A DNA stretch of 27,260 nucleotides. It comes from a virus. Lineage: Duplodnaviria; Caudoviricetes. Position 1 is the stretch's first letter. Each line of letters starts with the position of its first letter. Below, one piece after another: positions 7,811-23,064 of the stretch. The stretch is from positions 1 to 27,260 of IMG/VR virus record IMGVR_UViG_3300035135_002236. One strand, written 5' to 3'. A program made the position numbers and the translations under genes. The notes below the pieces were generated by a model. That model searched no databases, had not been told where the DNA came from, and saw only the letters and a program-made list of their open reading frames with translations.

Positions 7811-7859
7811 AACCTTGCCAAGGTTGAGGTCGCGAGTTCGAACCTCGTTTCCCGCTCCA
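7811..7859 (+). mobile_element. attP: attP core: 3' part of tRNA-Gly(GCC)
   Basis: AACCTTGCCAAGGTTGAGGTCGCGAGTTCGAACCTCGTTTCCCGCTCCA contains the GCC anticodon arm, T-arm and 3' acceptor strand with CCA; the 5' half of the tRNA is absent; about 120 bp from the integrase stop. Confidence 0.92.
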
Positions 7860-7982: not shown

Positions 7983-8876
7983 TCATTTCTGACGCAATAC
8001 ACCTTGCATACGGTTAGCCACTTCGCGTTTCCGCTCCGTGTTCAGGTGGGTATATCTTGCCACCGAATTTAGTGAAGCCCAGTTACCCATCTCCACTAAC
8101 TCGACGGCTTGAGTACCCGCCTTAATGTGGAACGAAGCATAGGAATGTCGGAGCGTGTGGAACGTAGTTCCCGCTGGCAACCCAGCTATCTTTACCGCTC
8201 GTCTCCATGTCTTGTTGACCACACTTTTCTGCGACAACGGTTCCCCGTTATCTTGGAAGAAAACGTACTCGATATCCGACACCCTTCGGCTCGTATGCTC
8301 GAGGTCCTCTTTCATCCGCATCCTGCGTTTGAGCAGTGCCTGACAATCCCTTGTCAGTGACATTGACACTGGCTTGTTGTTCTTCATCTCGGCTGCGGAG
8401 AACTCCAGCACAGAGAATCCATGCTTGACGTGTCTCCACTTGAGCGTCCGAACATTGTTGTTACGCAACCCAGTTAGGAATGCGAACTCAGCCATGTCTG
8501 CTCTCAGAGGATCCAGCGCTCGAATCAGTCTTCCGACCTCATTCGGCTCCAGATAGTTTGTCCTCCTATTCTCTTCTAAAGCTTTGATCTTTGGTGGGAC
8601 GAACTTCATTTCGAGTTCCTCCACCGCGAAGTTCAGCATTGCCCTGAGGTAGTTTAGGTAACAGTTGACGGTGCTGTTCTTCAGCTTTCTTTCCTGCTGA
8701 AGCGATCCCACCAGAACCCGAATGTCGAGAGTTGTTATCTCGTCGAGCTGGCGGTCTCCCCACTCATCAACCATTTCGCTAATTACGCGCTTGGCTGTGC
8801 CGTTCCTCTCGATCCCTCGCCGACTACAAGTGGTGAGGTAAATTTTCGAAAGCTTTTCAAAAGTACAAAGTCCCAT
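7983..8876 (-). CDS. int: Tyrosine recombinase/integrase
   Basis: Catalytic motifs TGLR, K (MKN), HTLRH, GNW, RY; start placed at MGLCTFE because of a GGAG RBS 7 nt upstream; the listed start at 8978 lies in a terminator. Confidence 0.93.
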   Translation of the reverse strand: MGLCTFEKLSKIYLTTCSRRGIERNGTAKRVISEMVDEWGDRQLDEITTLDIRVLVGSLQQERKLKNSTVNCYLNYLRAMLNFAVEELEMKFVPPKIKALEENRRTNYLEPNEVGRLIRALDPLRADMAEFAFLTGLRNNNVRTLKWRHVKHGFSVLEFSAAEMKNNKPVSMSLTRDCQALLKRRMRMKEDLEHTSRRVSDIEYVFFQDNGEPLSQKSVVNKTWRRAVKIAGLPAGTTFHTLRHSYASFHIKAGTQAVELVEMGNWASLNSVARYTHLNTERKREVANRMQGVLRQK

Positions 8877-8919
8877 AGTTCTACTCCATGAATCAGGAGA
8901 GGCGCTCGGAACTTTTTGG

Positions 8920-8948
8920 ACTATATTGTTTTGTGTCTTCATTGTCAT
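8920..8948 (-). promoter_or_regulatory. Putative sigma70 promoter for int
   Basis: ATGACA-17 nt-TATAGT just downstream of a terminator. Confidence 0.55.
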
Positions 8949-8954
8949 CCCTGT

Positions 8955-8976
8955 AAAAAAGCCCCCCGTAGGGGGC
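8955..8976 (-). terminator. Intrinsic terminator of the recombination operon
   Basis: GCCCCC-TACG-GGGGGC-TTTTTT. Confidence 0.9.
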
Positions 8977-9104
8977 AAGCCACACTAAGAGTCCAGCTCG
9001 TAACGTGAGCCACCCGGAATTAGTTGAGGCGTTTTGGACACTGGTGCCTCGAGCCAGCTTTCACGGGAGAGGAAATCCCTGTCCGTTCTCATGGAGATAG
9101 AGAA
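8955..9104 (-). ncRNA. Putative structured 3'-UTR RNA/sRNA
   Basis: 150 nt largely covered by stems: UUCUC/GAGAA hairpin, three-way junction GGACA/UGUCC, GGGA/UCCC, CUGG/CCAG, pseudoknot GAGGC/GCCUC, GGCUC/GAGCU hairpin, terminator. Confidence 0.55.
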
Positions 9105-9347
9105 TTAGTTGATCAGCTCACCTTCAGCGATCTCAGGCTCAGCCTCTTCCTCTTGTGTAGGAAGCAGCTTCTGAAGATCGATGTTGATTACCTCTTGACC
9201 GATGCGAGCCATCTCGATAATCGTGCCCATCACAGCCATGGCGTTCTGACCGTTCTGTGCGCGGACCAAAAGCTCCTTGCATGGTTGACTGAGATCATCA
9301 ACGTTGTAGGTCTGACCGTTGATTTGGATTTGCTGCTGTTCATTCAT
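9105..9347 (-). CDS. Hypothetical protein (80 aa, acidic tail)
   Basis: Start MNEQQQ has an AAGGAG RBS and an ATGA overlap with the upstream stop. Confidence 0.75.
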   Translation of the reverse strand: MNEQQQIQINGQTYNVDDLSQPCKELLVRAQNGQNAMAVMGTIIEMARIGQEVINIDLQKLLPTQEEEAEPEIAEGELIN

Positions 9348-9739
9348 CGAGATTTTCTCCTTGCGTTGTCTCGAATAAGTCGGTAGTTGCGCGGTGCGTT
9401 GAGTGCTAGTTCCGCTTGGGGTGTGTGTCGATCCGTGAATGAATGCCCTCTGCCACATACTTCGCAGTACGGTTCAGCCTGGGCGATCCTGTCGCGGACA
9501 CCAACCATCTCGATGGACAGGTCTTCACCGAAGTGAAGCGGGTCGTCGCCAACTTGGATGACATGTTCCTCGACACCCAAGCCAGTTTTGATATTGACGA
9601 TCCCTTCCTGTCGATCGCGATGATTCCTGACTCCGCGAATCCATATACGATGGTCGAAGGATGAGTTTGGACGCTTATCATCTAAATCGTACCCTCCGTA
9701 AACCACCGTATTTACAGCTCTGGTGATTCGCAGTCCCAT
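9344..9739 (-). CDS. CsrA/RsmA-like RNA-binding protein, tandem arrangement with CxxC insert
   Basis: MGLRITRAVNTVVYGG resembles CsrA MLILTRRVGETLMIG; VGDDPLHFGEDLSIEMVGVR...QAELALNAPRNYRLIR resembles VGETLMIGDEVTVTVLGVK..QVRIGVNAPKEVSVHR. Confidence 0.62.
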   Translation of the reverse strand: MGLRITRAVNTVVYGGYDLDDKRPNSSFDHRIWIRGVRNHRDRQEGIVNIKTGLGVEEHVIQVGDDPLHFGEDLSIEMVGVRDRIAQAEPYCEVCGRGHSFTDRHTPQAELALNAPRNYRLIRDNARRKSR

Positions 9740-16923: not shown

Positions 16924-17146
16924 CGTAATAGCTGATATCGAGGACAGGTTCCCTCCAGCATTTCACGCGCTGGCAATTGAGACCGTCCTTTACTACCTAC
17001 CCCCCGAGATTTGTGACCAGCCGGACATAGATACTCGCCGCGCCATCATCGACTCCATACCGGATGACTGCGAGCCTTCGCATGCCAAAGGTCTGGTCAA
17101 GGAGCACGTCAAGATTCTCTGGAGGAAACGTGCCGTTCGCTCATGA
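16862..17146 (+). CDS. Hypothetical protein
   Basis: 94-aa ORF with GAGG RBS filling the operon. Confidence 0.65.
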   Translation: MRPADFRHQVSRSAKKLYWADVIADIEDRFPPAFHALAIETVLYYLPPEICDQPDIDTRRAIIDSIPDDCEPSHAKGLVKEHVKILWRKRAVRS

Positions 17147-17555
17147 TCTAGCCATAGGTATCCAAGCGGAGCTGAGGCTCCTCGAGCACCTCCGCCAGAA
17201 ATATCCTGACGCCTACAAGGTAGAAGGCAAGCACAGCGAGTACGATTTGGTGGTGCCAGGGCGATTTACTGTTGAGGTAAAGTTTGATCCTGCGTCACAG
17301 CGGACGGGAAACGTGGTGATTGAGTATTACCACGGGAAGGCTTCGGGCTTGCACGTCAGCACAGCGGACTGGTGGGTCTTCGACACCGGAGAGAGAGATG
17401 GTGTCATCTGGCTCACACAGTCCGCCGTACGTCAGTGTATCGTTAGCGAGTCGTTACAGCCGGTAAAAATACAAGGTCCGGATGATCGTCTTCCGAAATG
17501 GGTGTTTCTAGTTCCATTAACGGTCTTAAAGCGATATTCATCTCAAGAGCCTTGA
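17130..17555 (+). CDS. PD-(D/E)XK restriction-endonuclease-fold protein
   Basis: YD...VEVKFD...TGNVVIE...SGL..STADWW; GTG start after GGAGG. Confidence 0.72.
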   Translation: MPFAHDLAIGIQAELRLLEHLRQKYPDAYKVEGKHSEYDLVVPGRFTVEVKFDPASQRTGNVVIEYYHGKASGLHVSTADWWVFDTGERDGVIWLTQSAVRQCIVSESLQPVKIQGPDDRLPKWVFLVPLTVLKRYSSQEP

Positions 17556-19440: not shown

Positions 19441-19482
19441 GTCTCTCTCCATGAAAATTTTTGGGGCGGGGAAATAAATCCC

Positions 19483-19698: not shown

Positions 19699-19967
19699 GA
19701 CGCTTCCTCCTCAAGGTATGCCTTGGTGTAAGCCCACTCCTTAACCTCTTCGATAGAGTTGGTTTCGTCGATGGATGACACCTCACAGTCAGGCGAGTAA
19801 AAGAACTCTCGAGTCAGTGAGCCGTCAGGCATTCGCGCCTTGCAGAACTCCTCTTTGATGTCCACTGCCGCCGCCTCGCCAATAGCTCGAGCCGTGTCGA
19901 TGTCTTCAGCGATCACATCAACGTAAAGATCCGCTTGAACGGTTATCCAAACTTGGAAGCTCTTCAT
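19695..19967 (-). CDS. Hypothetical acidic early protein
   Basis: GGAGGT RBS, ATGA coupling. Confidence 0.75.
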   Translation of the reverse strand: MKSFQVWITVQADLYVDVIAEDIDTARAIGEAAAVDIKEEFCKARMPDGSLTREFFYSPDCEVSSIDETNSIEEVKEWAYTKAYLEEEAS

Positions 19968-20349: not shown

Positions 20350-20420
20350 TTGTCTCTCTCCATGTGACGGTGCAAAAGCGCACCCGAAAGGACACCCGCA
20401 GGTGCCCAGTCGGCTAGGCT
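20350..20420 (-). repeat. Structured intergenic leader, copy 1
   Basis: AGCCGACTG-GGCACC-TGCG-GGTGTC-CTTTCG-GGTGCG-CTTT-TGCACC-..-CATGGAGAGAGA. Confidence 0.75.
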
Positions 20421-21332: not shown

Positions 21333-21408
21333 TGGTTTCTCTCTCCATGGTTTGGTGCAAAGTCACACCCGAAAACGCCCCCGAAGGGGCGCAGACGGCT
21401 GGGGCTTA
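21333..21408 (-). repeat. Structured intergenic leader, copy 2
   Basis: AGCCGTCTG-CGCCCC-TTCG-GGGGCG-TTTTCG-GGTGTG-ACTT-TGCACC-..-CATGGAGAGAGA. Confidence 0.75.
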
Positions 21409-21819: not shown

Positions 21820-21851
21820 TTGTCTCTCTCCATGTCAGCAAAAAATGATCA

Positions 21852-22872: not shown

Positions 22873-22908
22873 CGGTCTTTCTGAGAGTACCCACCAACAG
22901 GAGGAAAT

Positions 22909-23064
22909 ATGAGCTTGTACGAAAACATCAGGAAACGCAGAGCATCGGGCAAACCCATGCGGAAAAAAGGCGATAAAGGCGCTCCAACTGACGCTGATTT
23001 TAAGCGAGCAGCTAAGACAGCCAAGAAGCCCCGTAAAAAGCCCGCTAAGCGAGGTAAAAAGTAA
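22909..23064 (+). CDS. 51-aa Lys/Arg-rich protein
   Basis: MSLYENIRKRRASGKPMRKKGDKGAPTDADFKRAAKTAKKPRKKPAKRGKK; AGGAGG RBS; TAATG coupling; not in the ORF track. Confidence 0.8.
   Translation: MSLYENIRKRRASGKPMRKKGDKGAPTDADFKRAAKTAKKPRKKPAKRGKK

Follow-up and report, generated by a model that had tools for sequence, protein, structure and literature searches.

The region between the last gene of a leftward operon and the integrase gene of a temperate phage raises the question of whether it encodes a functional RNA and, if so, what this RNA acts upon. A first-pass annotation had read it as a structured RNA with a pseudoknot and two loops complementary to the Shine-Dalgarno (SD) sequences of the phage's own genes.

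The locus and its features

The window, i.e. the whole stretch of DNA analysed here (27,260 nt), is a 27-kb temperate phage contig. Its leftward operon holds a repressor-like gene and Erf- and RecE-like genes, followed by two orphan genes of 131 and 80 aa. Past the 80-aa gene come the RNA element, a tyrosine integrase gene and, just after it, a 48-nt tRNA-Gly-like stretch (7812-7859; presumably tRNA-Gly) that is conserved in relatives. This stretch is likely attP, formed by the 3' half of the tRNA-Gly-like sequence, and exact copies of the 48-mer are present in 12 of 401 genomes sampled from the class to which a Gammaproteobacteria genome belongs. The features of the locus are collected in Table 1.

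Table 1. Features of the RNA locus and its putative targets (positions in the window)
Feature	Position	Strand	Remarks
Double-length CsrA-like protein with CxxC insert (131 aa)	9344..9739	-	Two genes upstream of the RNA; candidate binder of the same RBS motif
80-aa orphan gene, last of the leftward operon	9105..9347	-	No Pfam match; conserved in relatives
5' hairpin (H0) with CUCCAUG seed	9086..9104	-	Immediately follows the stop codon of the 80-aa gene; pair probabilities 0.6-0.95; seed in 5/6 alleles
Repeatable module	9026..9084	-	P1, optional P2, A-rich joint, P3, 9-nt loop, A-rich linker, pseudoknot; 23 aligned units, covariation, 1-3 tandem copies
P1	9084-9081/9039-9036	-	4 bp in the refined drawing
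P2 hairpin	9065..9079	-	Loop variable; helix missing in two units
P3	9058-9054/9044-9040	-	5 bp in the refined drawing
Pseudoknot 5' strand, in the P3 loop	9046..9050	-	Both-sided changes at 2/5 pairs (7 and 2 rows); outer pair frequently open
Pseudoknot 3' strand	9026..9030	-	Covariation alignment
Second hairpin	8995..9011	-	Loop invariant in 6/6 alleles though flanks differ
Intrinsic terminator-like hairpin and U run	8955..8976	-	Present in 6/6 alleles
Integrase promoter-like site	8920..8948	-	10/12 consensus matches; similar -10/-35 pair at the same place in 6/6 alleles, by eye
Integrase leader hairpin	8868..8914	-	Predicted to hide CAUGGAG (8890-8884) and ATG (8876); -15.5 to -16.8 kcal/mol, 6/6 alleles
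Tyrosine integrase, main candidate target	7983..8876	-	297 aa from the second ATG; PF00589, phrog_1
Early-gene RBS complementary to seed	21827..21834	-	Complementarity and site ranking
Early-gene RBS complementary to seed	21342..21349	-	Complementarity and site ranking
Early-gene RBS complementary to seed	20357..20364	-	Complementarity and site ranking
Early-gene RBS complementary to seed	19446..19453	-	Complementarity and site ranking

The structural elements drawn in the first-pass annotation all lie where it had placed them on the minus strand: the 5' hairpin at 9104-9086, P1 at 9084-9080/9040-9036, P2 at 9079-9065, P3 at 9058-9040 (loop 9053-9045), the pseudoknot partner at 9030-9026, the second hairpin at 9011-8995 and the terminator at 8976-8955. 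It had overlooked the integrase promoter-like site, the CsrA-like gene two genes upstream, and the fact that the module is repeatable and common to an unrelated phage group. The terminator and the integrase promoter-like site lie between the seed and its integrase target in 6/6 alleles. An N-terminally extended integrase was rejected: the upstream in-frame stretch overlaps the conserved promoter-like site, and the upstream in-frame start is probably unused. For the loop of the second hairpin, no recurrent complementary site was found at gene starts, and the second hairpin is absent from the second phage group described below; a possible pairing of this loop, either with gene starts or with the joint in some of the units, is inconsistent across alleles.

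A conserved junction-pseudoknot fold

A compact RNA module of about 57 nt, consisting of a three-way junction and a pseudoknot (9084-9026, minus strand), is a real fold and is present outside the window phage too. The window sequence by itself folds no better than chance (z = -0.40), with pair probabilities of 0.04-0.06 for P2 and P3 in ViennaRNA, which ignores pseudoknots. It is the comparison with relatives, and not the single sequence, through which P1, P3 and the pseudoknot are seen to exceed chance. Among 23 aligned units, whose rows are mutually related and not independent, 94.4% of 321 cells are paired and 9 of 14 pairs show change on both sides (three of the four P1 changes stem from the L011 allele alone, and 12 rows leave the outer pseudoknot pair open). 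None of 500 shuffles reached any of the five measures, and slid control structures pair at only 28-40%. The units from the second phage group were found by patterns that fix part of the fold; adjoining tandem units are free of that constraint. Covariation in relatives therefore bears out the proposed structured RNA with a pseudoknot.

The unit alignment favours a P3 of 5 bp and a P1 of 4 bp. The conserved core comprises these two helices, a loop whose length is always 9 nt, a linker rich in A and a pseudoknot of 3-5 bp, whereas P2 varies freely and is missing in 2/23 units. Unpaired invariant bases are the fixed A in the 9-nt loop and the AAC linker. An H-type pseudoknot whose first stem is branched is an equally valid drawing of the module.

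A scan with the Rfam 15 covariance models, proposed earlier as a check, returned no family, whether c4, int-alpA, a riboswitch, a ribozyme or any other, at the gathering threshold in the window; at E ≤ 10, only sub-threshold matches driven by the terminator were obtained, and nothing relevant was found on a three-unit array from a relative either. In full-text literature searches the motif was not described, with the proviso that subscription journals and the supplementary catalogues of large phage RNA surveys may list it. The module is a real, uncatalogued, mobile and repeatable phage RNA element.

Such a compact nested fold with invariant unpaired bases (the fixed A and the AAC linker) could belong to a self-cleaving ribozyme that frees the units or the 3' RNA. 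We consider this highly improbable: the module has no Rfam ribozyme match, we know of no catalytic core of the known classes that is recognisable in it, and no RNA contig ends mark a cut, in contigs that are too shallow to weigh.

Alleles and relatives of the window phage

Protein-anchored searches yielded ten contigs spanning the region, with five alleles besides that of the window, and the junction is present in all ten. Two of these alleles, L011 and L039, were found through these searches and not by patterns. In L011, P1 and P3 consist of other sequences that nevertheless pair, and the loop and pseudoknot are unchanged. The L039 allele has three units in tandem, followed by the hairpin and the terminator. 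The module is thus single or tripled ahead of the terminator and integrase in the window phage group, with only one base between tandem units. A search with a covariance model of the module (model R1) found one site per genome; the window and five whole contigs had no additional copy. An exact 27-nt search of IMG/VR gave no match, and of the IMG/VR pattern matches, 7/13, 1/14 (L050) and 8/24 in separate searches were discarded as chance. BLASTn of the region and of the three-unit array against 50,697 phage records gave short chance matches only. Between 68 and 80% of the region's words were found in four runs of one study labelled marine metagenome; runs with a small share are no evidence of habitat.

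The single-unit alleles (L001, L004, L033 and the window) resemble the 5' half of the first or second unit of L039 joined to the 3' half of its third unit, and these hybrid-like alleles suggest array collapse by recombination. The window and L001-L003 have integrases that are 99% identical and RNA regions that differ in the hairpin loop and P2, and L033 combines an L004-type RNA with an L011-type integrase leader. Because near-identical integrases accompany differing RNAs, and given the L033 hybrid, the RNA region is a recombination hotspot.

A conserved anti-SD seed and complementary ribosome-binding sites

The CUCCAUG seed of the 5' hairpin is kept in 5/6 alleles. The claim that this loop matches the ribosome-binding sites (RBSs) of the integrase and of early genes held up better than those on P2 and on CsrA sites, both in this conservation and in the ranks of the sites: CATGGAG precedes the integrase ATG at 8876, and CATGGAGA precedes four early genes (21834, 21349, 20364 and 19453). 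Each genome's own seed was ranked against its SD-bearing ATG sites, taken from an automatic start list. CAYGGAG sites occupied the top 5 of 48 places in the window, the top 4 of 35 in G464, the top 2 of 29 in G466 and the top 4 of 70 in the complete genome G405, where the integrase came second; the integrase CAYGGAG site was first of 32 in G409 and first of 29 in L039. The RNA of L001 begins with 20 nt that are almost the reverse complement of the integrase site.

Seed-target statistics are modest. When CUCC was held fixed, 44 of 3000 shuffles equalled the integrase duplex and 18 of 3000 equalled the four early-site duplexes, whose sites have a longer common leader repeat and are not independent. 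The best five of 41 starts were equalled in 25 of 600 shuffles; these 41 hand-set starts include at least two that are mis-set, and the automatic list gave the same top five. The duplex energies leave out the cost of opening both hairpins, and the integrase site sits in its own hairpin of about -16 kcal/mol. Two early-gene cassettes (21349-21372 and 20364-20387, minus strand) have in common a terminator-like hairpin, a short GGUG/CACC hairpin and a CAUGGAGAGAGA site, and a leader akin to theirs occurs in G405 (L224, ~19830-19900).

Two alleles depart from this picture. In L011, the sixth allele, the 5' hairpin is replaced and UUCCAUG appears in an enlarged P2 loop; such a heptamer occurs in 473 of 20000 shuffles of the region. 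This is the one candidate event of compensatory change between seed and target, with a loop that was picked after inspection and flanks whose extra pairing is not significant when the hexamer is held constant (391/3000). L033 is the one counter-case: it keeps the seed, but its integrase site, CACGGAG, breaks the match.

The second anti-SD loop of the first-pass annotation, UUUCCUC in P2, did not survive the comparison. It is private to the window, being found in one of 18 distinct P2 regions (23 units), and since two units have no P2 at all, its two proposed targets fail with it. One of these, GAGGAAA at 22901-22907, does stand directly before the ORF at 22909; the other, at 17122-17128, is not an established start, as it precedes an in-frame GTG inside ORF 17064-17555. 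GAGGAAA has 8 copies in all in the window, including five elsewhere and the complement of the element itself. Other P2 regions have GAAA, GAGA or GUGG tetraloops, and the longer loops have only a UCC triplet in common, which may matter, though without target specificity.

A CsrA-like protein encoded upstream of the RNA

The 131-aa protein belongs to a family with 39 representatives at 50% clustering. PF02599 was matched at E ≤ 1 by 14 of 27 family members (best 1.2e-6), and the window's own protein gave no match. Weak CsrA matches lie at both ends of the family protein, and R123 is invariant in the family where CsrA has R44. A Foldseek search with the predicted model (mean pLDDT 91) matched no PDB chain at E ≤ 0.001, and CsrA was not among the matches listed; the assignment to a CsrA-like fold consequently rests on sequence profiles.

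CANGGAG, whose middle base varies (T, C, A, G) among start sites, is enriched about fourfold at starts in the window (7/30) and in G405 (7/29), compared with ~1.9 expected, and is not enriched in three partial contigs of the second phage group. Because the motif is enriched in phages that encode the CsrA-like protein, this protein could explain it, and a protein reader of CANGGAG sites is a live alternative or partner to an antisense RNA.

ACGGA and AGGGA within the RNA had been put forward as CsrA sites and the RNA as a CsrA partner. This did not hold, as relatives do not conserve ACGGA and each of the two GGA triplets is base-paired. A CsrB/RsmZ-like sponge for phage or host CsrA would fit the CsrA-like gene nearby, the occurrence of CsrA in 2/5 candidate hosts and the GGA found in nearly every unit. 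CsrA prefers GGA in apical loops according to the available part of PMC7366521, but here the triplets lie in the P1 and P2 stems, the several apical-loop GGA triplets of CsrB/RsmZ were not found, L011 has no GGA in P1, and no CsrA-like gene was found in the three partial second-group contigs. With its GGA motifs in stems, the RNA is very unlikely to be a CsrA sponge.

A second phage group carries the module in a different setting

A relaxed pattern search of IMG/VR placed the module, in 2-3 tandem copies, in ten contigs of a second phage group. These contigs have no gene in common with the window over the compared stretches, and their DNA polymerase is nearest to those of phages DSL-LC04 (55%) and HTVC023P (52%). 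The two groups that carry the module are aquatic and otherwise unrelated, with 1-3 tandem copies. In the second group, the array lies in the leader of a small gene, occupying the interval between a promoter-like site (read by eye; a consensus scan found 0) and the RBS, and ending 9-12 nt before the latter. The family of the small gene often carries PF07878, and the gene had no tBLASTn match in the 50,697 phage records. In one contig (L054:3117-3460), an extra small gene lies between a three-unit array and the RHH-like gene.

The array is present in 6 of the best 80 loci for this small gene; the other 74 have the same gene without the module, and many of these have a clearer promoter-like site directly before the RBS, in the same place. 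The module is therefore an accessory insert. In this group it is accompanied by neither a seed-type 5' hairpin nor a terminator, and few starts carry CAUGGAG (1/23, 0/16 and 0/10 in three partial contigs). For these reasons, an antisense role cannot be the general function of the module, and the second group shows that it has a role independent of the CUCCAUG seed.

Two explanations cover both groups and are the main rivals to an antisense reading. Under the first, the module would be a decoy that binds a host protein, such as a defence nuclease, a toxin or a regulator; it would be produced early and multiplied by tandem duplication. The seed match would be an SD-like by-product, and the CsrA-like protein would read CANGGAG. 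We regard this as possible but somewhat doubtful. It agrees with a copy number of 1-3, with the accessory status of the module in the second group, with its presence at two positions in two unrelated phage groups, and with a conserved core in which P2 is dispensable. A precedent is phage TE, which evades ToxIN through expansion of pseudo-ToxI repeats (available part of PMC5086642). Like the type III antitoxin arrays toxI, cptI and tenpI and the pseudo-ToxI of phage TE, as far as these are described in the accessible portions of PMC5086642, PMC13682666 and PMC12283969, the arrays found here consist of tandem, non-identical pseudoknot repeats in variable number; in the window group (L039) they also lie ahead of a terminator, and a long stem 1, a one-base loop and an A-rich strand recall cptI and tenpI in particular. 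Unlike in the type III antitoxins, stem 1 is branched here, an integrase and not a toxin follows the terminator, and the second group has no terminator. Moreover, type III antitoxins bind their toxin via single-stranded ends in the part of PMC13682666 that we could consult, whereas units here have no single-stranded flanks and are separated by one base. Candidate hosts offered no counterpart: model R1 found no copy in two candidate host families (56 + 3 genomes, incomplete, and no positive control), and a relaxed pattern search of GTDB gave 48 matches, none of which has the complete fold; most lie in what seems to be coding sequence, and they look like chance. A decoy would also leave the retention of the seed unexplained.

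The second explanation is a cis-acting switch or a put-like antiterminator, which would govern read-through into the integrase in the window group and, in the second group, how strongly the gene behind it is expressed. Tandem aptamers are known among riboswitches. The module lies upstream of a terminator here and, in the second group, right after a promoter-like site and just before an RBS; the 3' strand of the pseudoknot can pair instead near the base of the long second hairpin. Yet the terminator is unaffected by this alternative pairing (pair probability 0.99-1.0), the integrase is preceded by a promoter-like site of its own, the gene context is without ligand-related genes, and the 74 array-less loci keep the same gene. 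The module shares with the put RNA of phage HK022 its size, both being 60-70 nt phage RNAs, and a promoter-proximal position in the second group, but put, an antitermination RNA that binds the beta-prime zinc domain, is described in the available text of PMC9378689 as two stem-loops with a triplex and no pseudoknot, whereas the module is a pseudoknot, repeated and accessory. A cis switch is hence unlikely.

Comparison with exoribonuclease-resistant RNAs

Tandem copies, as seen for the module, are also a feature of exoribonuclease-resistant RNAs (xrRNAs). An xrRNA-like roadblock to a 5'-to-3' exoribonuclease, releasing a stable 3' RNA, would accommodate this arrangement and a P2 that is free to vary. 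The P1-P2-P3 junction, its helix order and the pairing of the P3 loop with the 3' tail (PK2) resemble flaviviral class 1 xrRNA (accessible part of PMC7603331), with P2 missing in 2/23 units. In contrast to that class, within the same part of PMC7603331, the module has no J3/1 bases joining P3 and P1, no PK1 or base triple, and no conserved 5' segment beyond one A for PK1, which is essential in xrRNA. The setting differs as well, as RNase J was above the cut-off in none of five candidate host genomes (incomplete), and a block at the module would strip off the seed hairpin. With PK1 missing and RNase J in 0/5 candidate hosts, this explanation is weakened and appears very unlikely. Model R1 gave no match on T7 nt 300-1100 (best 2.1 bits), which is not homologous at this sensitivity.

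A proposed terminator-ended antisense RNA as the best explanation

The explanation that we prefer, and hold tentatively as quite possible though short of probable, is a terminator-ended regulatory RNA in which the module would be a stabilising scaffold and the 5' hairpin would present an antisense seed against the leaders of the integrase and early genes. It starts from the observed fold, its tandem and mobile nature, the conservation of the seed and its complementarity to RBSs. Because the module adjoins a hairpin complementary to the integrase RBS and four early-gene RBSs, it probably belongs to a small RNA which would dampen translation of these genes. The leftward early operon would end at the terminator at 8976-8955, and its 3' end would either survive as an RNA of ~150 nt or act from the mRNA. 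The exposed CUCC(A) could then nucleate on CAUGGAG sites. The integrase, transcribed from its own promoter after the terminator, would be repressed in trans, or in cis after read-through, and this repression may disfavour integration for as long as the early operon is active. The least certain step is the biochemical role of the module itself, i.e. that of a putative stabilising scaffold. The contigs from four RNA runs (X5-X8) are scattered and only 2-4 deep; they show no discrete RNA and are too shallow to inform.

Antisense RNAs that target SD sequences with C-rich loops are known from phages P1 (c4) and P4 (CI RNA) and from the UCCC-loop sRNAs of S. aureus. Like these, the RNA described here has a loop-exposed anti-SD seed, several phage targets and a position at an operon boundary. 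As expected for such RNAs, the seed is conserved (5/6 alleles, relocated in the sixth) and complementary to conserved RBSs, which rank at the top in six genomes or contigs, with L033 as the exception. Unlike these RNAs, it has no Rfam match, its seed lies outside the junction in 5/6 alleles, and its junction is pseudoknotted and repeatable.

In a broader and doubtful proposal, the module would represent a class of portable phage RNA modules, with a pseudoknotted scaffold and an exchangeable P2 arm, that are swapped between unrelated phages of one host group, stacked in tandem, and display anti-SD loops or bind a host factor. In the window phage, such a module would join a single-chain CsrA-like protein acting on the same CAUGGAG sites, as a post-transcriptional control of the lysis-lysogeny decision.

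The module is small enough for direct biochemistry, and nature provides variants with 1-3 copies, with and without P2, and one allele in which all helices are replaced. If the decoy explanation is true, the module would be an RNA counter-defence common to several phage families. If the antisense explanation is true, the 3' end of the early operon would control integrase translation, an arrangement undescribed in the accessible literature, and this would amount to post-transcriptional control of lysogeny in aquatic phages of the Gammaproteobacteria type. Either way, phage RNA biology gains one more repeatable pseudoknot fold.
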